Part shown: positions 24,645 through 50,429 of the stretch, one piece after another | Numbering within the stretch: position 1 is the first letter of the stretch | How the letters are laid out: each line of letters starts with the position of its first letter | Virus record (IMG/VR): IMGVR_UViG_3300032291_002123 | Coordinates: 1 to 64,000 of that record | Source: a virus | Length of the DNA stretch: 64,000 nt | Direction: 5' to 3' (one strand) | The notes under the pieces: model-generated | What the model saw: the letters and a program-made list of their open reading frames with translations, nothing else | Databases searched by the model: none | Told to the model about the DNA's origin: nothing | Made by a program: the position numbers and the translations under genes

Positions 24645-24869
24645 CTAATCCTCTAAAGCCTTAAATGCTTCAGGGAAAGCCTCTTTAGCGGTAGCCTCGT
24701 CGATTTCATCATCTAGCCAGTCTTCGCCAATTAAATATCTAAAAACCTTATCGGTTTTGTTCCATTTGATTTTGTACCAAGATTCTTCGATTCCCTTACT
24801 AGGGTCAAATCGATAAAGAACTAGCGGCTTTGTGCTGTTATCATTTTCGTAAAGAACAAAATATCTCAT
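24645..24869 (-). CDS. Putative immunity protein for the RelA/SpoT-like C-terminal domain (paralog of 36954..37169)
   Basis: 74 aa; MRYF..YRFD..GIE.SWYK..W..TD.V...EIDE.TAKEAFP.AFK shared with its paralog. Confidence 0.7.
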   Translation of the reverse strand: MRYFVLYENDNSTKPLVLYRFDPSKGIEESWYKIKWNKTDKVFRYLIGEDWLDDEIDEATAKEAFPEAFKALED

Positions 24870-24883: not shown

Positions 24884-27800
24884 CTATCCCGCCTCTAATC
24901 GGAATCTTTGTTCGGTAAGTTTTCCAAGTTTTAATAGTTTCCCGTAACCCTCGGGGTCTGGTATTTTTCCAGCAATACCAATCATTTGCTCATAAAGGAG
25001 TTCTTTCCTTTTAAGAAGGTTAGGGTCAATATTATTCTTGTCAATGTTAATTACTCTATATTGCTTCAAAATAGGGTGGAGTTCTGACTTAATCTTTAGA
25101 GATTCTGGGGTATGCATCTGGAACTCAACGGTTACTCCATTTTTAGTCAGTTTCATGTTGATACCTCGATAAGTATTTTTGTAAGAGTTTTTAGGCTCCC
25201 AGAAATTTTTAGGTATTACTTTGTAGCCCATATCTTCGAAACGGTTAATAAGAGCCGAAGTCGCCTCGGTGTACCTAGCATTGTCTACAACCATCGTATA
25301 TCTAATGGCATCAGAAAGTTTTTCTGCTGCCAAATCAAAATTACCATTATATTCATTGACAGCGTCGCCTTCAATTTTTCTAGCCAACGAGTCAGTAGTT
25401 TTTAGGCGGTTAGCCAGAGAAGTCAAGTCTCCCTTAAAGTAATTAGCCAACGTGACCATAGTATTGGTAATTTCTGGCTCTAGTTGCTCGGCTCTGCTAC
25501 GAACTTTTTTAGCAGCCTCTACTGCCTCAGGGCTGTAAGTTTTTTTGATAGGCTCCTCTTTTACTAAAGGTGGAATCTCAATTTTCTTGAAAACATCTTG
25601 ATTAGAGCCATTTGTTCTTCCATTTCTTATTTCATTTGCACGAGCATTAATCTCAGAAATAGGAGCATTGTCTAAAATCATTGACAACAGTTCTCTGTTT
25701 TGAGCAATTGCTTGAGTGGTTAGCCCAGTCTGAGTAGATAGGGTGGCAATTGCGCTTCTAATTTCTAGGACTCTAGGGTCAGAATCTTCCAAGTCAGAGG
25801 CTTCAATTTTATTCTTGCCAGCCTCTCTCAGCCTGATTCTTTCTTCCCTCTGACGCTCTGCTTTCTTTTCTCTGTAGAATTCTTCACCCTTAGCGACTAC
25901 ACCTTCAATTTCTTCTTTGCTGAGTTTAGACAATCCCATAAATGAAGACCATAGAGCAGGTTGGTCATACTTGAGTTCACCGCTCTCATTGGTGTGAGCC
26001 ACGTCAATATATGCGTCTGGCTTAATGACATCGCCAGTTGCCTTATCTACTTCTTTAGGCTGTCTGTAGATTAAGTTCCAAGAATCGAATAGCGAGGCTA
26101 CGTTACCGTCAGGGTTATCTGGGTTCAGTAGGTTAGACAGAGTAAAGTAAATATCGTTCTGAGTAGTGCCTGGAACGTGTCTACCAGTTCGGTCTTTTCT
26201 TAGTTTGGCGCTTCCAATTGCTACTGGCAAGTCAGTAGTCATATACAACCCAACGGTGTCGTAATCTTTCTTCTTAGCCTCTACTAATTTTTTCTCTATA
26301 CTTTTACGTTTACCGTCACCAGTTCCGTCATAGACAATATCCAACCCACGCTGAAGCGCCGCTTGCTGCAACATTTTTGCAAGCATAGAAGACTCTTCGT
26401 GCGAGTTTTCAGCCCACTTCCCATCTTCTTCGCCAGTTCTAAAGATGGCACGTAGCCCTAGAGATTTCTCTACTCGTCTCATCATTTGGCGAGCGTGCAT
26501 TTCCCTTACCTCTGGCAAAAGAATCTTGATAGTATCAGGGTCAATTACTACTGCGCCCGGAGTCAATCCAGCAGGCATAGCCGCTTCTTCTCCAGTAACA
26601 TCGTCAATTTCTCTGACAGGAGGAATGCCATATTTTTTAGCGAGTTCTCCAGGTTTTCCAGTTTTTTTGTCGTATTTGGTAAATCCGCCCTTGCCCGAGG
26701 CAGGTCCTCCACCCAAGAAGAACATCTTCGGCTTTCTACCCTTAGGAGGCTCGATTCCAGCGAGTAGTTTCTCTATAATCTTTTTTTGAGCCTTTACTCT
26801 GTCTTCATCAAATACTAGGTTTCCCTTACCATCTCTCACCATGTGTCCACCAGTAACGGTAGAGGAGAACATAGAGTTGTAAGCCTCATAGTCAAGTTCA
26901 TCTTCTAGAACAGTGCCGTCATCTAAAGTCAGCCTGTAAGTGTTCTTCCCATTTTCTGTTTCTGATGCAAAAAGAAGCCTGTCTTCAGCGTTCTTTAGAA
27001 TTATCTGTTTGATTTCTTCGTCAGAGGCAGTTCTAGGAACTTTAATGTAAGTAGCCTTTTCTTTATCCCCTAAGTCTTTAGGGTCTAACCAATAGGCAAT
27101 TTTTTTACTCTTAAGTATCTTGGTTTTAGATACGTGATAGATAGGTAGAGTTCCATCTGGAACTCCATCTATTGAATTAAACGAGATATTGAAAGAGCCA
27201 TCCTCGAGGACGTTATTTTCTTCAATCATGTTGTCCTGAGCAAGTTGCATAAATTTAGAGGCTGGAGGCTGGTCAACTACCACCCTAGAAACAGAGTCTC
27301 CCAAATCTTCATCCTCTGGATTTTGAGCAGACCGAGGGAATTCAAAATCAGGTTCAGGCTTTGTAGGGTCATCTGAAAGCCAGTTCAGAACCGCAGCCTG
27401 AGCGATATTTCTATCTGAAAATATCTGAGTTGAGTAAGCAGGTAAGTAACTTTGACCTTCTCCGCTCATCCATAGTTGCGTAGAGTATGAGTCGTCTTGA
27501 GAAGCGTATGCCCTAGGCATTTTGGTGATTCTACCGCTTCTGCCAGTGGATGCAGATTTGTAGACCCTAACATTGTTATCTACATCTTCTACTGTAACCC
27601 CTGCGTCCAACACGCTCTGAGGCAGTGGCAAGAACGGCGGTTCGGTAATTACTTCTGGCTGCTCGCCACTGATTGATGCAGGAGAGCCGTCTGCTCGTCT
27701 GAGAATCTCTAGGTGCTTAGCAACGATAGGAGTTCCCTGAGCACGACCATCGAACTTAACAACTAGAACGTCAGAGTATGAGTAAGTTCCACCAGGCTTT

Positions 27801-30800
27801 TGGTTGACTGATAGAGGTCTACGCTTTCTAACGATACCTTCCTTGATAGTTCCGTCTGCGGCATAGTGACGAACACGGTCACCAACACGAACAATGTTCT
27901 CGCCATCTCTAGACATGTAAGGAATTTGGTTCACACCAGGGAAGGCACGGTTAGCCTGAATTCTTTCGATAATGTCATTAATCTGAGAACGGCTAACAAT
28001 GTTCTGGCTTGATAAACGTAGCAACAACGAGCCAGTATCAACCTTGCGGTCAACTAGGTCTGCAACGTAACCAATCAAAGCATCTTTAGTAGCATCTCCA
28101 GTTGCTTTAATTCCAGTGTTACCAATGTATTTGGTGTCCAGTTGTTCTGGTGCAAGACTACGAGGAATTGGTAATCCAGTTCCAGGGTGGATTACCTCAG
28201 CCTGACGATTGTTTCCTTGGTTGAACCAGTTTCTTGGGTTACGACCAAACACACCTTTACCTGAGGTATTTCCCCTAATAAGCGGAGCAATCTGGTTCTT
28301 CAAGTGAGTTGAAGAGTGGGTAGAAACGCTAATCTTGTTTACAGTAGTAGTGCCAATTACTTCTCCAGCGGCATTAATTGGAGTCTCACGAACGTAAGTA
28401 ACAAAGTCTTCATTTGGCTTGCGGTGGACAACAATTTCATACTTGTATGTATCTCCACCAGCAGTGGTGAAATCACGAGAAGAAACTATTAAGTCACCGT
28501 TTTCTAACTCCACATGCTTAGGGTAGGTGTTCTTAATGTCCTGAAGAATTGCAGTGCTTCTAGCAACGTGTTGGTTCTGATAGTCGTTTCTTGCTTCTCT
28601 GTTTTGAGCACCCTCTTCAATATCAGACTGCATTGGACGTGCTTCTTTGCCGTAAGCATAGGTAAGTTCCAAGGTTGTGGTGTCATCACCAGCGTATGTT
28701 CTAAATTTGACTTTTTTAGTTGCATCTACATATGCAACTGTTCTTCTACCATCGCTGCCTACGGAGTTGAATACTACACGACCCTCTTCCCTGAGTCTTC
28801 CATCTTCATTGGTTCCAACTAAAATGTCACCAAACTTCAGGTCTGCAACTAACTTAGAAATAGGATTTGAATCCTCAGGGTGTGCTCCGTAAATAGTGGT
28901 GTCCACGCCATTTTGAATTGCATTGTTTCGTGCATCTTCAATTTCGTTGACAGCATCTGCTGCAGAAGTAGCAGGCTGCGTTCTTTCGGCAAGCATGGCT
29001 TGCATTTCGGAAATCTTATTCCTAATCCAAGGTCCGCTTCTAACGTCCATAGGTCTTCTTGCGAACCCGTCGAGAATTGCATCCCGCTTTTCTCGGTCTT
29101 CTGGGTACAAAGCGTAAGCCAACTCAACAAACTTATTTGTCTCTTCTGTAGTTGCATCTAGGGCAGTGCTTACAGGTTCTTTCTCTAGAGTTTGAAGAGC
29201 CGCAATTCTATTGTCTAACTCTGCAGCGGTTATTTTTCCTGCTTGCTGCTGATTGTAGAATTCTGCAAGATAGGCTTCCTTCATTTTGTCGTCAGTTATC
29301 TTGGCATTTACTAGGTCAAAGAATCTACTTACCTGCTCTTGGCTAGGTCTACTAACCTCATCTGCACGAGAATAGTCGTCTTCAATGCCATAACGGTCAA
29401 GAATAGCCTTACGGCGAGCAATTAGAGCAGTAGCAATACGGCTACGGTCATTAGGGTCTCGAATAATCTCAGAAATAGCATTGATTTTATCTGGAGTCAG
29501 AGGAAGCACGGTTGCTCTGGTGTATTGCTTCATCTGGTCATCAGTTAAGCCTTCAAGAATACGCTTACGTCCGTTGTAACCAGGTAGCCAGTGCCAACCA
29601 TTTGGGTTAAGGAAGAAGTCGAGCGAAAAGTTGACACCTTCTCCTTCAAATGAGCCGTCACGAATAGCAGCATCCATCAAAGCCTTTTGCTCTGGGGTGG
29701 CGGTGCGTAGCCACTTATCACGCCCGCCTGCGAGACGGCGTTCACGCCCGTCAGGGCCTTTAGGACCTTGGTCTGGGATTGGGTCCCACATCAGGGCACC
29801 GCCACCGTCAATACGAACGATGTTGCCGTTCTCGTCGATTACGGTGTTGGTTGAGTTGAACGGCCCGTCAATGTGGTCAAGCAAGATGTCAGCAGGTAAT
29901 CCGTGACGAACAGCCTCAAGAATCGGGTTCTTAGGGTCGCTATCCCAGTGGAGTGCTCGGTCATAAGTGGTTCCATCAGTTGCTGCAGGGATAAACTCTG
30001 TGACAACAAATTCTTGTCTGAGACCAGCAAAGCCAAGGTCTCTGGTTCCACGCTGAGGCTTAGACGCTCTAACGCCCATTGCACGGTAGAAGGCTTGGGC
30101 AGCAATTTCTTGGTCTTTTGCTCTCCAACCCCAACTATCGTCTTCGCTAATATCAAAACTCTTAACTACATACTTCTTACCAGTAGCAGGGTCTTGCATC
30201 AAAAATGGTGCATTAACTCCACCGCTAATTTCGCCAGGCAATGAAATAAAAGAGTCCAAGTCAATCTCGGTGTTTGCGTGAGCAATAATAGATGACACTG
30301 ATTCTGGAGTCATCAATCCAACTTGGTTTAGAGCGGCTTCGTCAACTGGTTGACGTAGGCTGGTAACACGCTTCTTCACTAACTCGTTAGTGTCTACACC
30401 TTGGTACTGTAGAGCATCACGGATTGCAAGAATATCTGTGGTTTGCACATAACTTGTGTCGTTGAACCTAAGTTGAACTGAAAGTCTACGGTTGTTCAAA
30501 GCATCAACAAATCCGTCTTCTAGAGCCTTGCCGTCAAAGTTATTTGCAATATATGCAGCACTGCTTGCTCCGCCATCTAAACGTTTTTGTGTAGCATCAA
30601 CGGAGTTGGGGTTATAAGTTCCGCCTAATACGTTGTCTTGTCCGTCATCTAAGTCGAACACTTCATTGTTAGACAGAAGCGGGAATCTTGGTATCCCGTT
30701 ATTATTTCTAAATTGATTAGGTTTTCTAACGCTATTTACTACTTGTGCTACTGTGTCGTAACTGCTATCTTCCATGCCACGAAGTTCTGCTTCAGGCAAT

Positions 30801-33800
30801 CCTCGAGTTACCCTATTAGAAGTCAATCCCTCTTGAGCAAGTAGTTTGTCCATCTCAGCAATTAAGTCTGCTTTAGGGTTAGGCATTGCCTTTACTGCGT
30901 CAGCATTTGCCGTTCCACCGTTAATACCGTCTACGGTTGGAACAATCCACTTATTGTATTCTTTTGTTCCAATTTGACTGATAAGCGCTTGAACAATGGT
31001 TTTAGGCGCAAGGTATCCGATTTCTGGCTTGCCGTATTTTCTACCAAAATTCAGTTCAGCAAAATTTTCAGTCACAGGTTGCTTGTTGCTGCTAAGCGCA
31101 TTAACAAGAGAGTTTTTAAGTTCGTCTTCGCTAAACCTACGAGCCAAAATTTGGGAATCGTACTGCCAGCCATCAGGCTCGTCTTTGCCAAACAATTCTT
31201 TATAGTTAGTGAATTTAACAATAGGGACATTAAATTCAGTGTCGTCATTAATTAGTTCGGTGTTTTTACCAATAAGATTTAGCGGCTTTTCAGGCAGAGA
31301 AGTGTCACCGTAAGGGCTTCTCTTAACGGTCTTAAAAGAATCCTTAGCAAAAGGCTTAGGACGCTCTATACGATTGTCTACGTTATCTAGTTGTTCCTTG
31401 TTATTTTCTAACAAAGTAATAAGTTCGTCCCTAAAACTAATAACGTTTTCGTAAGTCTCGATGTTCCTTCTGCGGAAATAATCACCGATGTTAGGGTTTG
31501 CAGTTACCTGAGCGTCATACTTATCTTTAAAATCAGCAAGTTGACTTCTCTGCTCTTTAATAGCATTGATTACATCATCCGCTGACCTGCCGTCTTTGTA
31601 TGACATGTCAGTAATCATTCTTCTAAGAGAGTGAGAGTCTATTTCTCCCGCTTTTTTCTCAACGAAGTTTTTCATAAATGCAGGGTAATCTTCGCCAGCA
31701 ACAGGATTGTCGCCTCTTGTATAGTCGTTTCTGACTCTTTCCATTAATCCGTTAAAACCTTCGTCTACGGTGTAAAGAGGTCCTGTCATATCGCCAGAGC
31801 CAGTTCTATACCCAGTAGGGTCTAGTGGCAAGTCAAATCTCTCCAAACTTCTTTGGGTGCCGCCAAGTTTAAAAATTCTGTCTGATTTGAACCAGCCGTT
31901 ATCACGCATGACATCATAGATTGGAGCCTTCATCATCCAAAGAACTTTTTCCGCTTGACTTTTGTTGTGACGGTCAGGGTCTGCTGGGTCAATTCCCTTA
32001 GAGTTATTAGCGCCCATACCAGTTAAGGTACCGCTGTGGGCAAAGTGGCGACCAGACTTTTCTACAGCCAAACGTGCAAACGTAATGCTTGCTCCACCGA
32101 TACCGTCTTGTTGGTAACGAGGGTAGGTTTTCAACATGCCTGGAGTTACTGAATACTTAAAGTCAGCACCTCGGGCTGCTTCACCAGTCCAGTTAACGGA
32201 TACGTAACCTGCGTTAGCACCGATGCTTCCGTCTTTTTTAATAGTTTTTGTATAAGCAGTGCTGCCATCCCATTTCATAAAGTAGACTTTTCCACTCTTA
32301 GAAACGTATAAGCCTTCCATACTGACAACTTTTTCTTCGCCATTTTCGGCATCTCTGTTGTTAGCCGATGTGAGGATAGAATCCTCAAAAACTACAAAGT
32401 TACTAATGCGGTCTGCTTCTCCAGAGCCAAACCTATAGTCTTCTCCCCTAGCCTCTGAGTTGGCTACTAATTTTTGGATAGTTTTAGTGGTAGCAAAAGC
32501 CATGTTGTAGTTGAACTCGTAAGCACTAGTGTTGCCACCTTGCGCTGCAGACTTCAAGTTTTTCAGTGCGTTATTTCTAGCGGTTACTAGGCTTCTCAGA
32601 ATCGTTTTCTGAGAGTCGCTCAACTTACTGCGGTCAATAGTTCTGGTGTTTAGTTGGATATCTGCTAGTCGGTCACCAGCAATTGTTGCCGACATGTCTG
32701 GTTGGTTTTGCTCCAACTTTTCAAAGTTCATTGGTGCAGTTCTGACTAGTTCGCCTAGTCTGCTATTAAACGGGAACAGTGGATTCTCGTTAATTTCTAC
32801 TTCATGCCACTCTTCGTCTCTAGCCATTTGCGCCCAGATGTTGTCATACAAGGTTTTAAGAGCGGTTGTGTATTCTTCTGGAGTCTGAGCAAGTTCTGCT
32901 CTGTTATAGAAATAATCTATTTTGTCTGCGGTGAAAAACTCGGTAATGTCTTCGTCAGCGAGCATCTCATCGACCAGTTGCCTAAATTTCTGCAGGTGGG
33001 TGTCTTGGCTTGGGTTGTCGCCTAAGTCTTCGTCTCCGCCTTCAGGAGTAGAATCCATACGCTGAACTGACTCTGACTCTAAAGCGCTCGGCGCTGTTTT
33101 CTTAGCCTTGTTCTTCTTTACAACGTTGGCGATAGAGTCAACAAGTTGTGCAATGTCCCCGACCTCAAACTTGAGGTTTTCGTTCTTTAGGTAGCCGTTG
33201 ATTAGAGAGTTGGCAACCTGCTGCAAAGTGTCTACAGTCTGAGCAGTGCTGGTTGAGTTGGTTAGGTTAGAAATTACTTGGCTAACGTTAATTACGTTGT
33301 CTTTGTCTTTAGACAAAGTAGGAGACTTAAGCATGGCATCGCCTAGGTCGTCAACGTCTAGAGCAAAACTCTCTGTGCTTTCAATGCGAGGAGTGCCAGA
33401 ATCTGGATTAACGTTAGTGCTTAATGACTTACCAGCAGTTCTTCCATACCAATAAAGGTCTATGGCTGCTTCACTAGCCTCACTGCTTGAAGCAATTCCA
33501 AACACTCTATCCCTGCCACCAGAGTGATAGAAGTCGCTGTAGTCCATTCCTAGGTTAGAAAGTTTTTCTAGAGCAGAAGAAGTCTCTCCCTGAGCGAGAA
33601 GCCTATCGATTTCTGCGAAACGTTTTGCAAACTTACGTTGCTGCTTAGGGACACCATTAGCGCCGTTTATCAATAGTTCACGAGATGCTCTTACAAAATT
33701 CTTAGCGTCTTGATTTACATCCCCTGTTGCTGGAACGTTAATTAGTGCGTCAGAACTAGGAAGGATTTGTCCTAATTCTTTACCTCTATCCATTCGCTCA

Positions 33801-36484: not shown

Positions 36485-36555
36485 GAAATTAACTCCTGGT
36501 TAGTTAAACTGCGTAGTTGTATAACCTAAAGTATAGCAATCAAATAGTGTGCTTA

Positions 36556-36954
36556 TTATTCAACAGCGCCATCCGGCAAAGTTGTGTAGCGACTAATGTC
36601 AGGGTAATTGCCTTCATACTTAAAAGGTGCATAATTATTATACACCTCTCCGATGGCTAGCATTACAGACACAGGGTCATTAATGTCTTTTGGATAGCGA
36701 CCAAAGTGCGAGAACTGAATGTATTTATCTTCTTCTGGCACTCCGTCGCCCAAGTCATTAACGTTTGGGTTTAAGAACCACCTGACATTGAAGTCATTAA
36801 TTTTTCCTTCACCGTCAATCTGGTAATACTCAATCACCTGTGAGTTATTTAAGGTGACAGTCCATCGGCTTTTTTCTAGGCTGCCGTCTTTAACTGCGGC
36901 ATCGTATTTCTTTTGGTCATCTCGAAGTTTCTTTTCAAATTCTTTGTCGTCCAT
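36556..36954 (-). CDS. Hypothetical acidic protein, candidate immunity protein
   Basis: 132 aa; translationally coupled to the preceding small gene. Confidence 0.6.
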   Translation of the reverse strand: MDDKEFEKKLRDDQKKYDAAVKDGSLEKSRWTVTLNNSQVIEYYQIDGEGKINDFNVRWFLNPNVNDLGDGVPEEDKYIQFSHFGRYPKDINDPVSVMLAIGEVYNNYAPFKYEGNYPDISRYTTLPDGAVE

Positions 36955-37169
36955 TATTTTGAATCCTTAAATGCTTGGGGAAACGCTTCTTTGGCGGTTT
37001 TCTCGTCTACTTCCTCAAGCCAGCCGTCACCTAGGACTAAAAACTTAGATACGGTGTCGGTATCACTCCAGCGAGTTTTATACCAAGACTGCTCTATACC
37101 AGATTTTAGGTCAAAACGGTAGACATTGATTGGAATGCCGCCCGAATTGGTCGAAAAGAAATATCTCAT
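36954..37169 (-). CDS. Putative immunity protein for the RelA/SpoT-like domain (paralog of 24645..24869)
   Basis: 71 aa, immediately after the 2976-aa ORF; clear paralog of 24645..24869. Confidence 0.7.
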   Translation of the reverse strand: MRYFFSTNSGGIPINVYRFDLKSGIEQSWYKTRWSDTDTVSKFLVLGDGWLEEVDEKTAKEAFPQAFKDSK

Positions 37170-37178
37170 GTTTTTATC

Positions 37179-40100
37179 CTACAACTCAAACTGTTGTTGC
37201 ACAAGGGTTCCGATGTTCAATAATTCATCATAGTTATCTGGGTTTGGAATCTGAGAGGCAATACCAATCATTTTTTCCCAAAAAAGCATTTTTGCGTCTA
37301 ATTTATCTAGGTCTTGACCTTTTTCGGTGTCAATTTTTCTATATTCTTCGTAGATTTCGTGTAGTTGGTCTACCTTAATTTGTAGTGATTCAGGGGTATG
37401 CATTTGGAACTCAACGGTTACGCCATTCTTGGTGAGTTTCATGTTGATGCCTTGATAGGGGTCTCCACCCTCCCAGAAGTTCTTAACCCTAACTTCATAG
37501 CCCATCTGCTCAAATCGAGCAATTACTCTACGAACTGAGTCTGTGTACCTAGAGCCATCTACCGTCATGGTATAGCGAATGGAGTCAGACACCTTTTCTG
37601 CTGACTGGTCTATGTCGCCTTCGAAATCTTTGTTAGCGTCATCCTTGATTTTACGAGCCAACGAGTCTGTGCTCTTTAGACGCTGGTCTAACTGGTCTAA
37701 GTCACCGTCAAGAGTTTCAGCCAAAGTGGTCATAATCTTGGTAACTTCAGGTTCCATCTGCTCGGCAAGTTTTCTTACCTTCTTAGCAGCCTCTACTGCT
37801 TTGGGGTCACGGTCTTTTTCAAGCGGTGGCTCTTCAGCAAGAGGCGGAATTTCAATCTTCTTTTTAGTGGCAGTTCTATAAGTTCCTAGGTCTTCATCTT
37901 TATTTTCGCCTTGAGACTGAACTCTATCGGTTTCTGTTGAAGGGTCGACTACAATTATAGCCGAGGTATTGTAGATAACGTAATCTCCAGAAAATCTACT
38001 CCATCCTTCACCTGAAACAGCCCCGTTGCCGTCTGCTGCAAAAACTACAAATGGGGCGTCTGAGTCATACATATACTTATCCCCGTATCTATCAGCAACT
38101 TCCCTTCTCAAGGCGGTTCTATCTTTGTAACTTCTTAGTAGTTCATTAGGGACGAGCATTTCCATAACTGAATAACCTTCCGAACTTGCAAACTGAGATG
38201 CTCTGCTATAGTTTGTAGAAACGTAAGTTCCAGGACCGATAACGCCATTTCCAATAAACGGCTTACCGTCAACTAACTCTTGAGAAGCATTATTGGGAGC
38301 ACCCCTAAAAATTCTTGTCAGCCCCAGTTGAGCAGCGCTATTCCAAAGTTCTCTAAATTCATCTTTTGTTACGCCTATTGCTGGTTTATCCCACCCTTGA
38401 GCCTCGATAACTTCTTTCATTTTTCTAAAATCTGTCTTATATCCATTGTTTTTTGGATTGTCTTCTTCTTGCCCCCTATTCATAGGATATGAACCTAAGT
38501 CAATCTTCTTTCCGATTTTTGCTCTTTGGACGGCTTCATCAGCAACGGCATTTAAATCTTTAGGAGTAGGTGAGCCTAAGTCCTCGTCAGTGGGGGTCTG
38601 TGAAGATTGAACCTTGCCAGCAAATTTTTCTCCGTCATCAGTTAGGTTCGAACTGTGGTAAATAGGCATTCCAGCATTTGTTCTAGCAAACTCTAGAATC
38701 GCTGTAGCGAGACCCCTACGTTGGAAATCTTCGTCAACTTCAATCATGTTAATAGTAGAGAAAGGCTTGAATTCATCAAAATTAGGGTCGTCTAAAGAAC
38801 TACCGCCTATGGCATCGGGCCACCAGCGTCTTGAACCGTCAGGTAGGGTCTCTGAGGGAGGCTCTGCATAAGTGACTAATGCTACAGGATTTATGTCTAC
38901 TTCTCCATTAGGTTCATACGGGTACGCTAGCACTTTGCCATATCGTAGTTCTTCTCCACGCTGATTAATACTCCATCTATCGTCTCTAACTAACTGGAAT
39001 CGATTACCGTCGGCGTCAGTGTATTCGCCAGTTTCGGTGATATTTTTGCGTTTACCTTCTTCCGAGATTTCAGTTTCTAGGTTGTTATCAGACTTAACAC
39101 GCTTTCTAATTCTTTTTTGGGGAGTTAGGTCTGCGTCCTTGTCTTGGAATACAAGAGTAAATTCTTCGCCTAGGTCTTCTTCCATAACTTGGCTAGAAGA
39201 TTGGACAGCGTCTGCGAAGCGAGACCCAGATGGAGTTCTGGTTGCGTCGTGATAGATAGGCATGCCAGCGTTGGTTCGGGCAAACTCCATCATTGCAGTA
39301 GCAATACCTTCACGCTGTAGGGAGTCGTCTACTTCAACCCAGTCGACGGTAGTGAACGGCTTGGTGTTATCAATTCTCACATTTTCTGAAGAGCCACCGA
39401 CCTCGGTTTCATCCCACCTTAGTTTTTCTCTAGAGTTATCGTCGACTATGTAATAAGACTTTGCTTCAGAGTAGTAGAACGAGCCAATGGGCCAAGGGTC
39501 AACTTCCGTTGGCTCGATGAAAGAACCTGCGCCTGTGTCGTAAGCACCTTCGGCAGGTAGATATGCCTCTACGCTTCCTCTGCTTAAATACTCTCTGCCT
39601 TCATTGTCGATGTCCCACTGGTCATGGCGAGACAGGATAATCTTTTTGCCATCCTTGGTAACGTATTCACCAGTCTCGGTGACGGTTCTAACCTTAGGGA
39701 ACTCTTTGTTGGCAAACTGACCGCTTAGGTCTAGTTCTCTAACGCTGCTTTTTAGGTCATTGTTAGATTTAATGCGACTCTTAATTTCTTCTTGAGCGAG
39801 TCTTTTTTCCTCAGGTATCTTGCTTGTCACCCTTTCGAACAGAGCCTGAGAAGGAGAGACTCTGTCACGGACATCGCCGAGGTCTTCATCGAGAACTTGA
39901 GCAGGAGATTGGACTCCTGCAGCAAACTCCCTACCATCTTCGCTTAAGTGCTTGCTGTGGTAGATAGGGAAGTCAGTGTCGCTGCGAGCCGCTTCTAGCA
40001 TTGCAGTTGCTAGCCCACGGCGTCTGAACTCATATCTTACTAAAATGCCAGAAATTGTGTAGTAAGGCTTGTCTTCATCCACTTGGCTTATGTTGACGTC

Positions 40101-43100
40101 TGCAACTGCGTTCCAAGCACCGTAGCCAACTGGATACATGCTGTAGTCCATGTCACCAACAAGTAAGAGAGTCTCTTTGCCCCTAGCCATGACGTTGTGC
40201 TCTGCCACCATATAGATATTTTTCTCTATTGCCTCTGCTTGTCTCATTGCTGGGCGTGTGTGACTTATGATGTACTCGTTGCCTTGGGGGTCTGTATAAT
40301 CAAAATCTTGTCGTATATGTTCTACGCCATCAATGACTAATTTTCTAGGCTCTGCGGCAGACTTAGTTAGGCGTTGCTTAACGCTTCTGTATTCCGCTGG
40401 AACGTCACTTCTAGAAGGTGCGCCTAGGTCTTCCTCTACTACCTGAGCACTAGATTGGACGGAGTTAGCAAACTGTCTACCGTCATCGCTTAGTATCGGG
40501 CTGTGATAAACAGGTGCGTCTAGTGATTCTCTGGCAGCCTCAAGCATTGCGGTTGCTAAACCTTTGCGCCGCTGTGCTGCATTTACGTAAATTGATGAAA
40601 TACTATTAAAGGGCTTGTTTTTGTCAAACGGGGCGTAGTTCCCAGCCTCGTCTGGCGGAATGTATACAATTCCTCTTGGGTCAGTTCCTGCATCCCACTG
40701 GCTAAGCAGCATGCCGCCCACGTAATTTCCCTCAGAATCTTGTATATTGACAAGCGGGTCGAAATAATACTCTGCTAAATCAGGTGAAACTGGCTCTTTT
40801 TCTGTAACTTTGGTTTGAGACACTATAACAGTAAACTTTTCTCCATCTTCTGAAGTGTAATCAAAAGTCTTAAGAGTCTCGCTTTGAGTGCTAGTTGGGT
40901 AATTTGTTTTAGTAGTCTTCTCATCGGCTTTTTTAAGTCTAGAAAGAACACTTCTAGATTTCTCGGAGTCTGGAATTCTAGAACTAGTGCCTAAGTCTTC
41001 ATCCACGGTAGCGGCAGTAGATTGAACCGCTTCAGCAAATCCTCTACCCCTGTCGGTTATGACGGCGCTGTGGTAGATGGGGTAAGGTGCAGTTTGACGT
41101 GCAGCCTCAAGCATGGCGGTGGCTATACCCTGCCTTCTAAATTCTTCACCGACGTTAACTCCAGTGATGGTGTAGAAAGGCTTATCTAAATCGGCTTGTT
41201 CTAGGTTTATATCCGATATAAGCGAGAGAAGTTGAGACCTAGATTCTCCAGAGACATTTCGTAGCCTGTAGGTCATAGTGGCAACGCCACCATTTTCATT
41301 TTTTGCCGTTACTGACTGAGCGCCAGTGTACTCATTGGCATCGCCAAAGTTTGAGATGTTGCTAGTTACAGTGTATTTTTGTCCTTCAGGAGCCTCGTAA
41401 TCAAAATTGTATTGACTGCGAGAAGGCACGCCCTTAGGTGCGACAATTTTATTTTCAGATGTTCTCTTTAGCCTGCTTCTAACTTCAGCAGATTTTGCGG
41501 AAACGTTAGTGTCGGCTGATACTCCCAAGTCTTCTTCTAATACTTGACTACTAGATTGAACGGCGTTAGCAAACGCTTCACCGACGCCATCGTTACCTAA
41601 GTACTTGCTGTGGTAGACAGGTATGTTAGTAGATTGTCTAACAGCCTCTAGCGCCGCTGTAGCCAAGCCTTTACGTCTTTTGTCTGGAGCAACAAATACT
41701 GAAGATATAACGTAAAAAGGTTTTTTGGTGTTTACACTGTCAGCATCTGAATCTCTCACAAAAACCCTAGGGTCTGTCGCCCCAGCAGGGATTATCGACA
41801 TTTGCATTCCACCAGCACGTTCGCCATTTGAATCATAGATTTTGATATGAGGCGGAATGTACATTGTGTTGCCAAATCTAACTTTTGCTCGATTAAGGCT
41901 AAATTTAATTTGGAACTTTTCCCCGTCTTCTGCCTCGTACTCAAACTCGTGGCTTACACCAATGTGGGTAGTCCCAAACCTTGCTTTCCAATACCTAGCG
42001 CCGCTACTACGACTTTTAGAGATATCTATTCTTTTTAGTCGTTTAAGAACTTCTTCATTCTTGGTGATGGCTTCTTTGTCAGATTTAGCATTTAGGTCAG
42101 ACTTAAAGAAAGCGTCAATAGGTTTGATTTTGTCCAACAATCCAGACAATCTGTAGCGCAGCGCATCTACTTGACGTCTGGCAGCCTCGGCAACCTGAGG
42201 GTTTTTAATTCCGTTAGCAATCTCGGCTGCTCTGTTTACAGAGTCTGCTGCTTTTTTCAGCGTATCGTCGTCTAGTTTTTGTTGCTCTAGGTCAGCCTCG
42301 GCTGCGTCTACATATGTTCCTAGGTCTTCTTGCAGAATCGGCGGTGGAGATAAGAATTCTTCTGTGGTGCCAGTGGATGCAGAGTCAGTCTTGTCTTTGT
42401 CCTTAGCAGCCTTAACCAGCATTCCCATAGTGAAGGCATCGCTGTTAGCACCGATGAGCATATCTTCGGCTGATAGTTCACCATTTTCATAAGCCTCTAC
42501 AACTTTTGAATTGTTGATGTATAGAACATCGTGGCGAGCCGACAAAATACGCTCTGTTCCAACAGTAAATACTTCATAGGCAGAGTCTGAATTTAGTTCT
42601 AAGTTCAAGCCGTCTTGACGGTCATAGAAATATACTCTTCCCGTGTATCTCTCCCTAAACATGTCATAAAAAGCGACTTCATCGCTGTTCGGGTGAGTGT
42701 TTCTGCCAAGCGTGGAATATGACTCTAGAGAAATAGCGTTTCGGTCTTGACTGTCGTCCATGGCGTTAGGTCTAGAGCCGTCAGGGTTTTTAGGGAGAAT
42801 CTGAGAGAACAAGAATCCCCACTCCATACTCTTTAGTTCTGGGTAAGCCTGCTCAAATAGGTGACCTAATTCGTGCACGCCAACTGAACCGCCGAGTGGA
42901 ATATCTGAATCGTGTGCATGCGTGCTTAGTGTTAGTTCGGTGCCGTCTCTATAGCCACCTCTGCCGTCAGGAGACCAGTCAACAGGCAGCATGCCACCCC
43001 AGAATTTTCCAGAATTCTTTACGTAGTCAGCCATTTTTTCTACTACTGCAGCAGGATAACTTCTCAAAGCCCACTTAATTGATTCTTTGGCTAAATCTAC

Positions 43101-46100
43101 GGAGTCAGACATTTTAGGGTCTGGCATAGTCCTTCTTCTAATGCCATCAAACGAGATGAACTCGCTGCCGTCACCCTCGTACATAGGAATATCTAGGTCT
43201 TTAAAGAGTTGCTGGTATTCTTCCCTTGAAACTACACCTAATCTGTCAGATGCCTTAACGTAATTCTTTTTAATGTTTCTCAGTTCGATGCGACGTTTAT
43301 ACATGTCGACAACTTCTTGAACGTTGTTTTCGAGAGCGTACCACTCTAACGCCTGTTTTTTGTCGCCATTTGGTTTCTCAACGATTTTGACCCACTCGCT
43401 GTCAATTTTTCCTTGAATCCAATCTTCTTTACTGCGTTCTAATGCTTTTTGAAGAGCGAGGTTTTTTTGTTTAGGGTCTACAATATCCCTAATATCCTTA
43501 CCTTCTGAGGCAACACGTATAAACATGGATTCCAGAAAGTCTTTTCTTTCTTCATACTGTTTCTCAGCCAAGGTGCGAGCGTAATCCCTAGTCTTTTGCT
43601 GTAGACGTTTTTCTTCTTCATTTCCAGAAACAACGCTAGCAAGTTTCTCAAAAATGTCGTCGCCAAACTCGTTTCTCATACGCTGAGAGATTCTTGCTCT
43701 GGCAGCAGCAGTTAGCGCCTGAGAGTTCTCGATAAAGGCGTCCATCTCGTCTAGAACTTGGTCGTCTGGACGCTGCTTCAATTTGAATGAGTCTGGGCTA
43801 TTTGGAAGGAACTCGGCAAGACGCTTCATCTTTACCATGATGCGAGTGCCTAAACTCTGTTCGTTGGCATCTTTGTTTACAACTTCTGGAGAAAATAGGA
43901 AACTCGGAACAGAAGCATCCATCTCTAGAGCCATCTGCGCTAGAGTCTTATCCTCTTCTGTGGTTTGTAGGTCGATGCCAACCTTGGCAAGAGTCTCTTT
44001 TACTTCTGGAGAGTTAGGAGTGCCTAGGTCTTCTGGAAGAGTAGCCTTAGGGTCTCCACTGTAGAGCATCTGACCTTGACGCTCTTCACGCAGTTCTAAT
44101 TCAGTCTTAGGGCGGTCAGAGCGAGAGTCGTTTTCTTCGGTCATCCACTCTGCAGCATTTTCAATTGCTTGCTCTGGGTTGTCGTAAGTTCTACGGCTTG
44201 CAGGGTCGAACGAGTCTTGAGATTTCTTGTCGTTGTAAACCTCGCTGACCCATCTGCCTTGAGCGTTCTGTATAACCGTGCTGCGTAACGCTTCGTCAGA
44301 ACTTGGCTCAGTGGCGTAAGAGCCGTCTTCTTGCTTAATGAAATCTTCAGGAGTAATTACATCGTCGTCGTGGACGTGCTCTAAACCTAATCTGTTCTTA
44401 AAGTCTCTAGCCTTTTTGTCTCTAGGGTTAGGCTGACGTGGAGAAGTGGTTTCGTTGTTCTCGGCAATAGCCTGAACGTCTTCCCAGTCTTGTGCGTAGC
44501 CGATAACTTCAGGCTTAATGTTCTTGTCTTCCCAAGGTGCAACTTGGCGAGTAATTTCAAAGATTGGCTGGTCGTCTTCAATTTCGGTTGAGCCACTGCG
44601 GAAGCCGTTAACTATAGCGCCGTTCTTAACGTTTGCTTCCATGCGCTGCTGCACTTCCTTGTGCTGCGCTGGCTGATAGCGTCTTACAGTGAAGCCGCCC
44701 AAATCCTTAGCGTTGTTCTTTGTCCTATAAGTCGAGTAAGGCAATCCCTTCTCGGGGTCTGCAGGAGTAACTGCGTCAAATGTGTTCTTAGGGAATTCTC
44801 CTTGAGGAACGTCTCCCCACATACGTCTCTGAACGCTTCCAGCACGCTTCTGGTCGTTCTTTCGGTCATAGCGTGATACGCCTGCCTGAACATCTCCCCA
44901 AGACTGGTAGTAGCCGATTGACTCATTTCCACTCTCGGTGAATCTACCTCGAGGTTGGCTTAGAGGATTAGTCATAACCTCATAAACAGGATACTTAGGG
45001 TCGAGAGCGCCGTTCTCACCTAAGCCTTTTACTTCTGCGCCATACTGCTCTTTGTGACGTTCTAAATCTGGCAACGCTGCGCCAGCCTCGTGCTTAATCG
45101 CATAGTAGCCGTCAGCAGAAACGAATCCGTTTCCACCAGCAACCCAGCCAGATGGTGCGTCAATTTTTTGTAGCGTGTTTACATCTAATGCGTAGTCTCT
45201 TGCATAATCTGCTGAAGCCTTACCCTTGAGAGAAAGCATCTTTCCAAGTTTGCCGCCGATGTATGCCTTAACGCCTTCAACATTTGTGGCAGGAATTCTG
45301 AAGATTCCAGTTCCTAGAGTTGGGTGGTCAAATACTTCAACGTCAAAGGTATTAGTTTTAGGGTCTGAGCCGACAAACTTACCAACAACAGAATCGATGA
45401 AGCCTTTTAGTCCTCTGGTAAAGAACCTTGCTCCACCACCCATCCAAGCGAAGCGACCTCTACGGTCTCTACGCTGGAGTTTCGCCCGTGCCGAACGTGC
45501 TAAAAAAGAGTTCTCTCCTGAAAACGGGTTACTTGCAGCGATAATCGCAAGCACCACTTCTCTAGGCACGTCCTGTGCATCAGCAGACTCTAAGCGAGCG
45601 ATAGAAAACTGACGCTCTACGGTATCTGGCACGGTTAGATACGCTGAAGCGACGACAGGTCTATACTCCTCACTAATTCTTGAGTCTGCTGCAAACCACT
45701 CACTTCTCTTCTCAATCTTCTCGAGTAGAGATGCATACTCGGTAGAAGTTGATAGAGGGTGACCGATAGGTAGTAGGTCGGTGTTGTTTTGAGAAATCTT
45801 AGATGGAGTTCCAGTGGTAGCCATGTTTATGTAATCTGAAACTTCACGCAAGGCGGTGAACGCTCTTGCTTGAGCATCTTGTGACATGATGCTTCTACTT
45901 AGTGAACGCTGTGCAACCGTCATAGCCTCGATTGGCATAACCTTACGAGCGTCTAGGACGTTCTCGTTGGCAGATGCAACCATAGCCTTGATGGTCTCCG
46001 AAAAACTTAACTCGCTTGACGGTTCGTCAGAAGGGAGTTCGTTAACGGCAGCAACGTCCAGAGCGTCAATCAACTGATTGACTGGGTTCTCTTCGTTACT

Positions 46101-46109
46101 AGGGTACAT
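37179..46109 (-). CDS. Giant multidomain (polyvalent) head-region protein, 2976 aa: zincin, six GNAT repeats, ART-like, C-terminal RelA/SpoT-like domain
   Basis: HELGH at 42861-42875; six (R/Q)RxG(L/I)ATAxxE..R....P(V/I)YH modules; ART-like IFRG..GNGVIGPGTYVST..YVIYN; RelA/SpoT-like RLKSTDSLARK..DSIRYT..YQGIN..EFQMHT. Confidence 0.8.
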   Translation of the reverse strand: MYPSNEENPVNQLIDALDVAAVNELPSDEPSSELSFSETIKAMVASANENVLDARKVMPIEAMTVAQRSLSRSIMSQDAQARAFTALREVSDYINMATTGTPSKISQNNTDLLPIGHPLSTSTEYASLLEKIEKRSEWFAADSRISEEYRPVVASAYLTVPDTVERQFSIARLESADAQDVPREVVLAIIAASNPFSGENSFLARSARAKLQRRDRRGRFAWMGGGARFFTRGLKGFIDSVVGKFVGSDPKTNTFDVEVFDHPTLGTGIFRIPATNVEGVKAYIGGKLGKMLSLKGKASADYARDYALDVNTLQKIDAPSGWVAGGNGFVSADGYYAIKHEAGAALPDLERHKEQYGAEVKGLGENGALDPKYPVYEVMTNPLSQPRGRFTESGNESIGYYQSWGDVQAGVSRYDRKNDQKRAGSVQRRMWGDVPQGEFPKNTFDAVTPADPEKGLPYSTYRTKNNAKDLGGFTVRRYQPAQHKEVQQRMEANVKNGAIVNGFRSGSTEIEDDQPIFEITRQVAPWEDKNIKPEVIGYAQDWEDVQAIAENNETTSPRQPNPRDKKARDFKNRLGLEHVHDDDVITPEDFIKQEDGSYATEPSSDEALRSTVIQNAQGRWVSEVYNDKKSQDSFDPASRRTYDNPEQAIENAAEWMTEENDSRSDRPKTELELREERQGQMLYSGDPKATLPEDLGTPNSPEVKETLAKVGIDLQTTEEDKTLAQMALEMDASVPSFLFSPEVVNKDANEQSLGTRIMVKMKRLAEFLPNSPDSFKLKQRPDDQVLDEMDAFIENSQALTAAARARISQRMRNEFGDDIFEKLASVVSGNEEEKRLQQKTRDYARTLAEKQYEERKDFLESMFIRVASEGKDIRDIVDPKQKNLALQKALERSKEDWIQGKIDSEWVKIVEKPNGDKKQALEWYALENNVQEVVDMYKRRIELRNIKKNYVKASDRLGVVSREEYQQLFKDLDIPMYEGDGSEFISFDGIRRRTMPDPKMSDSVDLAKESIKWALRSYPAAVVEKMADYVKNSGKFWGGMLPVDWSPDGRGGYRDGTELTLSTHAHDSDIPLGGSVGVHELGHLFEQAYPELKSMEWGFLFSQILPKNPDGSRPNAMDDSQDRNAISLESYSTLGRNTHPNSDEVAFYDMFRERYTGRVYFYDRQDGLNLELNSDSAYEVFTVGTERILSARHDVLYINNSKVVEAYENGELSAEDMLIGANSDAFTMGMLVKAAKDKDKTDSASTGTTEEFLSPPPILQEDLGTYVDAAEADLEQQKLDDDTLKKAADSVNRAAEIANGIKNPQVAEAARRQVDALRYRLSGLLDKIKPIDAFFKSDLNAKSDKEAITKNEEVLKRLKRIDISKSRSSGARYWKARFGTTHIGVSHEFEYEAEDGEKFQIKFSLNRAKVRFGNTMYIPPHIKIYDSNGERAGGMQMSIIPAGATDPRVFVRDSDADSVNTKKPFYVISSVFVAPDKRRKGLATAALEAVRQSTNIPVYHSKYLGNDGVGEAFANAVQSSSQVLEEDLGVSADTNVSAKSAEVRSRLKRTSENKIVAPKGVPSRSQYNFDYEAPEGQKYTVTSNISNFGDANEYTGAQSVTAKNENGGVATMTYRLRNVSGESRSQLLSLISDINLEQADLDKPFYTITGVNVGEEFRRQGIATAMLEAARQTAPYPIYHSAVITDRGRGFAEAVQSTAATVDEDLGTSSRIPDSEKSRSVLSRLKKADEKTTKTNYPTSTQSETLKTFDYTSEDGEKFTVIVSQTKVTEKEPVSPDLAEYYFDPLVNIQDSEGNYVGGMLLSQWDAGTDPRGIVYIPPDEAGNYAPFDKNKPFNSISSIYVNAAQRRKGLATAMLEAARESLDAPVYHSPILSDDGRQFANSVQSSAQVVEEDLGAPSRSDVPAEYRSVKQRLTKSAAEPRKLVIDGVEHIRQDFDYTDPQGNEYIISHTRPAMRQAEAIEKNIYMVAEHNVMARGKETLLLVGDMDYSMYPVGYGAWNAVADVNISQVDEDKPYYTISGILVRYEFRRRGLATAMLEAARSDTDFPIYHSKHLSEDGREFAAGVQSPAQVLDEDLGDVRDRVSPSQALFERVTSKIPEEKRLAQEEIKSRIKSNNDLKSSVRELDLSGQFANKEFPKVRTVTETGEYVTKDGKKIILSRHDQWDIDNEGREYLSRGSVEAYLPAEGAYDTGAGSFIEPTEVDPWPIGSFYYSEAKSYYIVDDNSREKLRWDETEVGGSSENVRIDNTKPFTTVDWVEVDDSLQREGIATAMMEFARTNAGMPIYHDATRTPSGSRFADAVQSSSQVMEEDLGEEFTLVFQDKDADLTPQKRIRKRVKSDNNLETEISEEGKRKNITETGEYTDADGNRFQLVRDDRWSINQRGEELRYGKVLAYPYEPNGEVDINPVALVTYAEPPSETLPDGSRRWWPDAIGGSSLDDPNFDEFKPFSTINMIEVDEDFQRRGLATAILEFARTNAGMPIYHSSNLTDDGEKFAGKVQSSQTPTDEDLGSPTPKDLNAVADEAVQRAKIGKKIDLGSYPMNRGQEEDNPKNNGYKTDFRKMKEVIEAQGWDKPAIGVTKDEFRELWNSAAQLGLTRIFRGAPNNASQELVDGKPFIGNGVIGPGTYVSTNYSRASQFASSEGYSVMEMLVPNELLRSYKDRTALRREVADRYGDKYMYDSDAPFVVFAADGNGAVSGEGWSRFSGDYVIYNTSAIIVVDPSTETDRVQSQGENKDEDLGTYRTATKKKIEIPPLAEEPPLEKDRDPKAVEAAKKVRKLAEQMEPEVTKIMTTLAETLDGDLDQLDQRLKSTDSLARKIKDDANKDFEGDIDQSAEKVSDSIRYTMTVDGSRYTDSVRRVIARFEQMGYEVRVKNFWEGGDPYQGINMKLTKNGVTVEFQMHTPESLQIKVDQLHEIYEEYRKIDTEKGQDLDKLDAKMLFWEKMIGIASQIPNPDNYDELLNIGTLVQQQFEL

Positions 46110-46127
46110 TTTGTATCCTTCTGATTT

Positions 46128-46634
46128 CTAGAATTGAATAACTTGAACTTGTGTTGCGTCTGCACCAACGATGGTGCCAAGTTGCCATAGCCACTTGTCA
46201 TGCATGTCGATGCGCTCTGCAAGGAAGTTTATGATTCCCTGCTGGTTTAGAGCATTTGCGATTTCAAACGCCTCGAGCAGTGAGTCACGAAGAGTTTGGT
46301 TAATTCCGTGAAGAACTAAGGACATGGCAACAGGGTCGCCACCAGTTGGGCGAACCTCGATGCAAGAAAGACTTACGAAGTCTTGCAAGGTGAAAGGTGC
46401 GTCGTATCCGAGTTTACGAATGTGCTCAGCAAGTGGGTCAACTGCACTGTCTGCATCTTCGTAAAGTTTTTGGAAGAACTTGTGATACTGACTAAATTCA
46501 ATGCCACGAACGTTCCAATGAAAACCTTGAGCGGTGAACTTGTAGGCAGTGGTGTCTGCAAGAAGGCAAGACAACTTATGGACTAGTTCTTGCTTGCCAA
46601 CGCTAGCGCTGAGTTCGATTTCGATGTTTTCCAT
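46128..46634 (-). CDS. dps: Dps / ferritin-like DNA protection protein
   Basis: Dps ferroxidase signature FHWNVRG..YHKFFQKLYE..DPLAEHIRKLG..HDKWLWQL. Confidence 0.9.
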   Translation of the reverse strand: MENIEIELSASVGKQELVHKLSCLLADTTAYKFTAQGFHWNVRGIEFSQYHKFFQKLYEDADSAVDPLAEHIRKLGYDAPFTLQDFVSLSCIEVRPTGGDPVAMSLVLHGINQTLRDSLLEAFEIANALNQQGIINFLAERIDMHDKWLWQLGTIVGADATQVQVIQF

Positions 46635-46643
46635 TTATATCTC

Positions 46644-48458: not shown

Positions 48459-48487
48459 AATGGCTCTCCGTTCCTGTCGAATTATCG

Positions 48488-49160: not shown

Positions 49161-49162
49161 GT

Positions 49163-50221: not shown

Positions 50222-50251
50222 TGATGAGTGTGATGAGTGATGAGTGATGAG
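50222..50251 (+). repeat. TGATGAG x4 short direct repeat in non-coding segment
   Basis: Copies at 50222, 50231, 50238 and 50245; one more at 50071. Confidence 0.8.
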
Positions 50252-50358
50252 TAGAACTATTACATAAGGATAGAGATAGGTCATCCGCATCTGAGGTCAT
50301 CAATCACATAATGATTTTTATTTGTTAGGTGATAGAAGTCGGGTAAGGTAATCCTTAC

Positions 50359-50387: not shown

Positions 50388-50429
50388 TGATACTGACACC
50401 ATAAACAAAATCAAAAGGATGAAGCACTA

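Follow-up and report, generated by a model that had tools for sequence, protein, structure and literature searches.

How does a phage turn a single chain of 3000-6000 residues into many separate enzymes? Polyvalent proteins, chains of unrelated conflict-type domains encoded by phages and conjugative elements (Iyer, Burroughs, Anand, de Souza and Aravind 2017, PMC5512222), are thought to be the first weapons that a phage delivers. The question is raised by two giant genes in IMG/VR virus record IMGVR_UViG_3300032291_002123, of which positions 1 to 64,000 were analysed (this stretch of 64,000 nucleotides (nt) is called the window below). Giant protein A (2976 amino acids (aa); 37179-46109, minus strand) and giant protein B (3866 aa; 24884-36484, minus strand) are encoded between a portal gene and a protease gene, and their modules are separated by a repeated tetrapeptide, EDLG. 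The paper cited above proposes that embedded peptidases set these domains free; its accessible text describes no motif for cleavage or separation and has 0 occurrences of the word 'linker'. Judged by their sequences, A and B are phage polyvalent (multi-effector) proteins encoded among head genes. We consider it an even chance that the EDLG element is a lineage-specific signal for site-specific proteolytic processing.

EDLG lies at the module borders of A and B

EDLG was found nine times in A and four times in B. In A it lies at residues 693 (44022-44033, between segments A1 and A2), 1261 (42318-42329, between the zincin and the first GNAT module), 1526 (41523-41534), 1704 (40989-41000), 1893 (40422-40433), 2075 (39876-39887), 2311 (39168-39179), 2509 (38574-38585, between the sixth GNAT and the ART-like module) and 2739 (37884-37895, between the ART-like and the RelA/SpoT-like module). 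In B it lies at residues 376 (35348-35359), 856 (33908-33919), 1152 (33020-33031) and 3059 (27299-27310). These and all further features are on the minus strand unless stated otherwise. An earlier sequence-only reading of the window had listed the same 13 places by the low ends of the 12-nt motifs. The joints divide A into ten segments (A1-A10) and B into five (B1-B5; 376, 480, 296, 1907 and 807 aa); the number of motifs equals that of the modules minus one, and none stands before the first or after the last module. Both giants were delimited as open reading frames (ORFs), supported by Pfam GNAT families and homologues of 1636-5208 aa for A and by an orthologue from a related lineage (L112) for B. 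The joints from A1526 to A2311 were placed by motif count, segments and homologue alignment, and the joint at A2739 by motif count and homologue alignment.

From the composition of the two proteins, 0.22 copies of EDLG are expected by chance (0.085 in A and 0.137 in B) compared to 13 observed, in line with the earlier estimate of fewer than one. In 500 composition shuffles of A and B together, no 4-mer reached more than 5 copies, against 13 for EDLG. The seven sites outside the array of GNAT paralogues already give P(X>=7 | 0.22) = 4e-9. The motif had been reported from no other ORF, and a search of all six frames of the 64-kb window found no occurrence in any other frame; the whole 102-kb genome holds one further EDLG, at 78063 on the plus strand, outside all open frames of at least 300 aa. 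As had also been observed, the codons vary at all four positions (GAA/GAG, GAC/GAT, CTA/TTG/TTA/CTC/CTT and GGC/GGA/GGT), and the DNA flanking the joints is just 63-73% alike over 33-52 nt. These results indicate that EDLG is conserved at the protein level.

The motif forms the end of a longer element, [VM]-[QD]-S-x6-[DE]-EDLG, and the side after it is variable. The preceding residue is D or E at 11 of the 13 sites, which agrees with the (D/E)EDLG form described before, and a Ser at position -7, which that description had missed, is present at 12 of them. The six GNAT modules (A3-A8) are paralogues of 29-52% identity that each end in ...VQS-x6-EDLG; EDLG is invariant among them, and their alignments stop exactly at the motif. 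A second element, S-x-K-S-x-x-V-x-S-R-L-K-[KR], was observed 10-25 residues past EDLG in several GNAT modules (in the first 40 aa after A1526, A1704 and A1893; 41400-41520, 40870-40990 and 40300-40420) and also in the homologues P0003 and L012. After a cut at the joints it would lie near the newly formed N-terminus.

The linkers are acidic and contain many polar residues. Structure models, which cover A1 and A2, give a predicted local distance difference test (pLDDT) value below 50 for residues 680-693 of A1, following a confident domain, and for residues 1-4, 21-86 and 548-568 of A2, adjoining folded domains. Both sides of the joint at A693 and the upstream side of that at A1261 are predicted to be flexible, as the sequence-only reading had assumed.

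The separator is kept in close relatives and replaced in distant ones

In the nearest relatives the same peptide was found at the same joints. L006, a fragment from a phage whose portal is 91% identical, shares 60% identity with A across 1750 aa and carries EDLG (at A693), EGDLG (at A1261), EDDLG and EDDLG at four orthologous joints. Full-length homologues from two other assemblies (P0002 and P0003; A1 86-87% identical) contain six and five EDLG, respectively, with that at A693 kept in both. P0002 lacks A4 and A9, and its last GNAT module meets the RelA/SpoT-like module through a single EDLG, which indicates that modules are gained or lost exactly at the joints.

Sister lineages, in which A1 is 46-50% identical, carry a related peptide at the same joints. 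In the L012/P0004 lineage this is [DE]x[FI]P, with 6-9 copies compared to ~2 expected, and in the L112/P0009 lineage [DE][DE]LP, with 11-13 copies compared to 0.5 expected and preceded about seven residues upstream by [VI]-[QK]-[SN]. The L112 orthologue of B (3540 aa; ~40% identity over 3273 aligned columns) harbours counterparts of all four B joints, namely EELP at about the same place as B376, DS-x6-ESLP for B856, EELP for B1152 and PRS...DELP for B3059, and its equivalent of the long segment B4 is likewise uninterrupted.

Five whole contigs were read in total, that of this phage and those of four more distant relatives (G001-G004), with portals 69-73% and A1 regions 31-35% identical to those studied here. 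Their giants are punctuated by other motifs: GFxQx[PAS]G in G001 (23 copies in one 4801-aa protein) and G002 (16 and 3 copies), GPSPK[EQK]E in G003 (L107; 6 and 12 copies in giants of 3542 and 6148 aa) and PSQNRE in G004 (L109; 5 and 6 copies in giants of 3239 and 6023 aa). Each of these is expected ~0.01 times or less. In all five contigs the motif occurs only in the giants encoded between portal and protein C, the protease-bearing protein, and position-weight scans of all other ORFs found nothing resembling the G001-G004 motifs. The relatives also contain tandem double sites 9-22 aa apart. Free-standing homologues match the bounded modules in size, and in G003 ArdC-N and MPTase lie together in one bounded segment, as they do in free ArdC. 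The payloads of the homologues vary widely and include GNAT, ArdC, UvrD, RNase T, NUDIX, Toprim, ART, DRAT and PI3/4-kinase families.

The second giants of G003 and G004 each run through a single open frame, of 6148 and 6023 aa, a length that is unusual for phage proteins. The region corresponding to the 4801-aa giant of G001 (38639-53041 of its contig) is split in the close relative G002 (25427-40764) into two frames that overlap by 22 nt; the split may reflect a frameshift, be it programmed or not, or an error of assembly.

The earlier expectation that EDLG would be conserved in homologues holds for the nearest ones and fails for the wider clade, where the code varies by lineage. We read such a variable code as stronger evidence of function than plain conservation. 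With the same joints marked in homologues and other motifs present in other lineages, the proposal of a selected separator that flanks unrelated modules was borne out.

Modules bounded by the separator

A consists of an N-terminal region, a zincin, six GNAT modules, an ART-like module and a RelA/SpoT-like module. Pfam searches with single segments gave no match for A1, A9, B1, B2, B3 and B4.

The zincin-like metallopeptidase is part of A2 (aa 977-1243 of A; 42381-43181), with its HELGH motif at aa 1079-1083 (42861-42875), and was assigned from HExxH, invariant residues and structural matches. In the numbering of the segment, H386, E387, H390 and E393 (HExxH..E) are invariant in five homologues. 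The model predicts strands at 348-369 followed by a helix at 381-395, which would place HExxH on a helix after a sheet as in zincins. The best structural matches of the model (VIA-align) are all zincin endopeptidases: the catalytic domain of anthrax lethal factor (Z 6.9), the Pro-Pro endopeptidases (PPEPs) PPEP-3 (Z 6.5) and PPEP-2 (Z 6.2), and botulinum light chain (Z 6.1). A Foldseek search of the A2 model against the PDB returned nothing at E<=0.001, with thermolysin and collagenase at E 0.5-2 only, and a single-protein scan of viral contigs found no relatives of A2. A2 was not filed as MPTase-PolyVal, since the hhalign probability was 13% and the match covered the HExxH helix alone.

The six GNAT acetyltransferase modules (A3-A8; 38583-42326) were recognised by Pfam PF00583 and related families and by pairwise BLAST. 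A9 (37893-38582) has no Pfam match; a language-model feature search (Atlas) gave a match to an ART-PolyVal (PF18760) cluster with a score of 0.90 and 170 shared features, a lead that suggests an ART-like module. Its homologue P0060 has 258 aa. A10 (37182-37892) matches PDB 8vx3 'SaSAS' with E 1.2e-9 (A aa 2785-2934) and is 57% identical to the C-terminus of B (aa 3633-3863; 24896-25588), which matches the same structure with E 6.3e-8. By sequence similarity both are RelA/SpoT-like and resemble small alarmone synthetases. A10 has 3005 homologues, and 37 of the 147 new matches listed have 300 aa or fewer. The RelA/SpoT-like modules were also matched to PHROG families annotated as 'head morphogenesis' and 'minor head protein', in the C-terminal parts of these. 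A further match, to the C-terminal ~200 positions of the XopAD/skwp type III effector model of NCBIfam (E 6e-26 for 37182-37892 and 4e-23 for 24896-25588), scores far under the whole-protein cut-off, so that only the domain is shared.

In B, segment B5 contains a Zeta-toxin-like P-loop kinase domain (aa 3310-3450; 26135-26557; Pfam PF06414, E 5e-13 to 8e-15, above the cut-off) ahead of the RelA/SpoT-like module, and the 1907 aa of B4 have no recognised family. The claim of one enzyme per segment is roughly true for A and does not apply to B, with its 1907-aa segment and two enzyme-like domains in the last one. The claim that GNAT duplication alone cannot explain the motif was confirmed by the seven copies beside non-homologous modules. 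B has no zincin of its own, and cutting of B by the embedded zincin would have to occur in trans.

Each giant is directly followed by a small ORF, of 71 aa after A (36954-37169) and of 74 aa after B (24645-24869). The two are paralogues (52% identical) without a family match and are, from their position, candidate immunity proteins for the RelA/SpoT-like modules. The giant ends together with these ORFs look like duplicated toxin-immunity pairs.

Among the giants of the clade, only the N-terminal region is conserved. A1 (693 aa) is present in all relatives, and nearly every giant ORF searched in them carries, within its first 310 residues, a domain of ~90 aa, here called domain X. In A this domain spans aa 198-284 (45258-45518) and in B aa 22-108 (36161-36421), with 40% similarity between the two. 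The model of A predicts a small beta-barrel, with strands within 226-280 and Tudor/SH3-like matches over ~60 aa (probability 0.97-0.99). Foldseek searches with the A1 model found these ~60-aa Tudor/SH3-like barrels only and no protease fold in the PDB, and nothing named among viral models; an Atlas search with A1 gave no usable match.

Candidate readers of the separator

A selected peptide that stands at unit borders, once per border, and is rewritten in concert in each lineage needs a trans-acting reader, and a site-specific protease is the simplest one. We infer packaging, cleavage, its scissile bond, the protease and ejection in the following form. A and B would be made with the head proteins and brought into the procapsid by the conserved N-terminal region including the beta-barrel. 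Cutting at EDLG would then turn the two chains into ~15 proteins, namely the zincin, six GNATs, the ART-like, Zeta-toxin-like and RelA/SpoT-like modules and several without assigned function. These would be ejected with the DNA and act in the next host, and the separator signal would co-evolve with its protease. The protease could be the prohead serine protease of protein C, which would act within the procapsid like those of T4 and phiKZ, or the A2 zincin, which would act in the capsid or after ejection as Iyer et al. propose. Taken by itself, each of these two enzymes is an unlikely reader, and to the same degree; the chance that some other protease cuts is smaller again. That the tailed freshwater actinophages of this large clade follow a true polyprotein strategy, in which capsid-loaded chains of up to ~6100 aa are cut by a dedicated protease at a code private to each lineage and co-evolving with that protease, is put forward tentatively and falls short of an even chance.

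Protein C (1737 aa; 18428-23641) was identified by PHROG head maturation protease families. Its S78-like prohead protease region (~aa 1000-1110; ~20321-20638) is supported by PHROG and by a weak match to Pfam Peptidase_S78 (E 0.004, below the cut-off). The major capsid protein (16290-18347; phrog_777) has a scaffold-like N-terminal region according to the five-lineage alignment, in which a conserved stretch of ~90 aa is followed by an acidic Glu/Pro/Thr-rich linker of variable length and then by the conserved 'F[QE]APADRQPV...ITAGADIPGY' that starts the major-head-protein-family region. This layout looks like a fused scaffold/delta domain.

Several findings weigh against cleavage by one of these enzymes. 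No EDLG or near-motif was found in the capsid protein, the portal or protein C, and the same holds for the G001-G004 motifs in their own genomes (five genomes), so that the usual argument for a head protease is missing here. The five-lineage alignment also has no lineage-specific motif at the junction of scaffold and HK97-fold parts of the capsid protein. Lineages with unrelated motifs have protein C sequences of 58-60% identity, and the scaffold-like capsid N-terminus and its junction to the HK97-fold part are conserved across them; one head protease reading wholly different motifs fits poorly with this. In favour of an embedded zincin, A2 has a fold like that of sequence-specific endopeptidases, and the lineages with EDLG, EDLP and ExFP share the A2 type, those with GFxQxPG, GPSPKxE and PSQNRE having MPTase-PolyVal instead; this correlation between zincin type and motif is confounded by phylogeny. 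Against it, the latter lineages lack the A2 type, so that no single embedded protease family explains all lineages. The structural match scores of A2 are modest (Z <8). The Pro that ends the motif in sister lineages would be awkward beside a scissile bond for many proteases. The A2/A3 joint is degenerate in P0002 and P0003, where the motif is lost (PDLY and DDFY), and many relatives, including Pumpernickel and DSL-LC01, have no sharp motif. A cut after Glu or Gln within each motif would unify several of them, although this is speculation; the Glu before D-L-G and the Glu ending GPSPKxE and PSQNRE make a Glu-specific cut conceivable. A complex prediction of A2 aa 280-547 and Zn with a 41-aa linker alignment scored 0.03 compared to a mark of 0.32, which speaks neither for nor against the zincin.

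Two further candidates were set aside. In all five lineages protein C contains 'VLARLK-x-[DN]LG-[TV]-[AS]G' near its C-terminus (aa ~1590-1600), as does gp84 of Pumpernickel, with KEDLG. This sequence resembles the linker motif and the 'SRLKK' element after some A joints. As a shared site, 'LARLK-x-DLG' (with an exact EDLG in Pumpernickel gp84) was rejected as the lineage code because it is kept in all lineages whatever their linker motif. The 224-aa ORF between giant B and protein C (23644-24318) was rejected as a dedicated protease; Pfam, PHROGs and NCBIfam gave no match for it, and G001-G004 lack a counterpart.

The reader need not be a protease. The motif could instead be a docking or handling tag that stays uncut, a linear motif bound by the capsid interior, scaffold, packaging chaperone, domain X or ejection channel to condense, anchor or thread the giant, comparable to capsid-targeting sequences and to encapsulin cargo-loading peptides that bind an HK97-fold shell. 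Such a role is unlikely in our view, although much of the evidence above suits it: motifs that are confined to the giants and differ by lineage fit co-evolution with any binding partner, an element of ~13 residues with two anchors (Ser -7 and EDLG) looks more like a docking peptide than like a minimal cut site, proteins that a head protease should cut lack the motif, and a Tudor/SH3-like barrel, a peptide-binding type of fold, is present in nearly every giant searched. Moreover, PMC5512222 gives the example of N4 virion RNA polymerase, a protein of 3500 aa that is packaged and ejected uncut. However, the motifs are counted as separators, with none before the first or after the last module, and a tag would leave the terminal module untagged. 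Two sites in tandem, 9-22 aa apart, seem superfluous in a tag, the capsid protein and protein C vary too little between lineages to make an obvious co-evolving partner, and it would remain unexplained that bounded segments are whole free-standing proteins.

Exchange of modules offers another origin for the motif. EDLG could be a cassette-junction motif at the borders of exchanged modules, like pre-toxin VENN in CdiA or DPxGL in Rhs proteins, kept mainly because recombinants joined at the linker fold correctly, with any cleavage being secondary. The exact gain and loss of modules at joints (A4 and A9 are absent in P0002), the widely different payloads of homologues with a common N-terminal region, and the toxin-like module plus small paralogous ORF at the end of both giants are what one would expect from this. 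Yet the joint DNA is too short and dissimilar for homologous recombination (a 12-nt core, 63-73% over 33-52 nt), the codons vary, and the concerted rewriting of every copy in a lineage is unexplained and again needs a trans-acting reader; we regard this origin as improbable. A functionless linker, inherited and spread by duplication of GNAT-plus-linker units with the other copies arising by chance or from low-complexity acidic sequence, is nearly excluded. Six of the 13 copies do lie in paralogous GNAT units, and the linkers are acidic and polar-rich, but the seven copies beside non-homologous modules, the 100% retention of EDLG among diverged GNAT paralogues, the position kept in orthologues at ~40-60% identity and the parallel punctuation of other lineages by unrelated motifs all contradict it. 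Site-specific processing would account for the separator counts and for the whole-protein size of the bounded segments.

Genomic context

The window is part of a 102-kb viral contig with an estimated completeness of 76%, on which terminase, portal, capsid and tail genes are present. The source is an uncultured phage of freshwater actinobacteria, and the clade is actinophage-like, as judged from sequence relationships: the portal shares 72% identity with its counterpart in the metagenome-assembled Actinomycetia phage DSL-LC01 and 55-63% with portals of ~190-kb Microbacterium phages. At least 594 relatives of the portal were found. The order of genes on the minus strand is large terminase (50963-52351), portal (46644-48458; phrog_776, E 6.5e-104), a ferritin/Dps-like protein (46128-46634; Pfam Ferritin, E 3.5e-14), giant A, two small ORFs, giant B, three small ORFs, protein C, the major capsid protein and tail genes. 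The claim that multi-enzyme proteins are encoded inside the head module, between portal and protease, is in agreement with this order and the family matches. The giants sit between portal and protease/capsid in all relatives examined as well, that is, the four whole relatives, DSL-LC01 and Pumpernickel, a cultured Microbacterium phage in whose head module they likewise lie.

In G001-G004 the ferritin-like domain is the N-terminal half of a 371-387-aa protein at the same position of the locus. The C-terminal half of this protein carries 'DLLPxxHP', which recurs in the N-terminal region of A, where D111, L112, L113, P114 and P118 are invariant and H117 is nearly so.

Comparison with known systems

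A and B contain, as polyvalent proteins do, between 2 and 15 unrelated effector domains per chain. They share with this class the multi-enzyme chain, the phage origin, the virion-gene neighbours and the zincin, ART-like, GNAT and nucleotide-modifying modules, and ArdC-N, MPTase-PolyVal, UvrD, RNase T, NUDIX and Toprim were found in homologues of A and B. The hallmark families PF18818 and PF08401 had no match in A or B; A9 gives the ART-PolyVal lead, and homologues that have the common N-terminal region carry ArdC-N with MPTase-PolyVal. What differs is the sharp border peptide rewritten by lineage, a zincin outside the MPTase-PolyVal family and the actinophage-like clade, whereas PMC5512222 reports polyvalent proteins as over-represented in Firmicutes, Proteobacteria, Bacteroidetes and others. 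The class and the processing idea are already published; we found no account of a conserved separator between modules, or of such a separator being rewritten from lineage to lineage.

A sharp, lineage-specific separator predicts the exact mature products, gives a mutational handle, allows a co-variation search for the protease and explains how effector cassettes can be shuffled without breaking the system. If the chains are indeed processed polyproteins, the mature proteome that is injected would be predictable from sequence alone and cassettes would swap freely between joints. Should the motif turn out to bind a partner instead of being cut, it would represent a new packaging signal all the same. 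The analysis also flags enzymes that are candidates for anti-defence or host takeover, namely the six diverged GNATs, the ART-like module, the Zeta-like kinase, the two RelA/SpoT-like modules with their candidate immunity genes and the 1907-aa unit, all from abundant phages of freshwater actinobacteria.

The T4 protease gp21 cuts the internal head proteins IPI-III and Alt at L/I-x-E sites. In SPN3US (gp245) and phiKZ (gp175) the head protease is known to cut proteins that are packaged and ejected, again at a consensus motif, and SPN3US gp53 has multiple cut sites in one substrate (PMC10052503). The giants are likewise encoded with head genes. In T4, phiKZ and SPN3US, however, the consensus is common to capsid, portal, scaffold and protease and mostly serves the removal of N-terminal propeptides, whereas here the motif is not shared with any of these substrates, separates whole enzymes within the giants and differs between lineages despite protease proteins of 58-60% identity.

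MuF/SPP1 gp7-type toxins and toxSAS resemble A and B in the gene position after the portal, the C-terminal RelA/SpoT-like module and the small ORF that follows. MuF toxins carry one toxin and no internal separators, in contrast to the 10 and 5 modules found here, and the MuF domain (PF04233) was not found in A or B: A1 and B1 have no Pfam match at E<=1, and the PHROG matches cover the C-terminal toxin part only. Encapsulin cargo-loading peptides are terminal, unlike the separators, which are internal and never terminal.

The strict motif cut by PPEPs recurs in the linkers of substrates whose genes lie nearby. The predicted structure of the A2 zincin matches PPEP-3 and PPEP-2 of the PPEP-1/2/3 (M34) group, but the likeness is one of predicted structure alone, with modest Z scores, no sequence-level match and a motif that is not Pro-Pro. 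An operational analogy with RNA-virus polyproteins is drawn in PMC5512222 for polyvalent proteins. There is no homology, and here a DNA phage would use inferred cleavage to release products that are probably accessory effectors and not the replication core. What the two would have in common is one chain that holds many enzymes, separated by short specific sites that co-evolve with the protease within each lineage.

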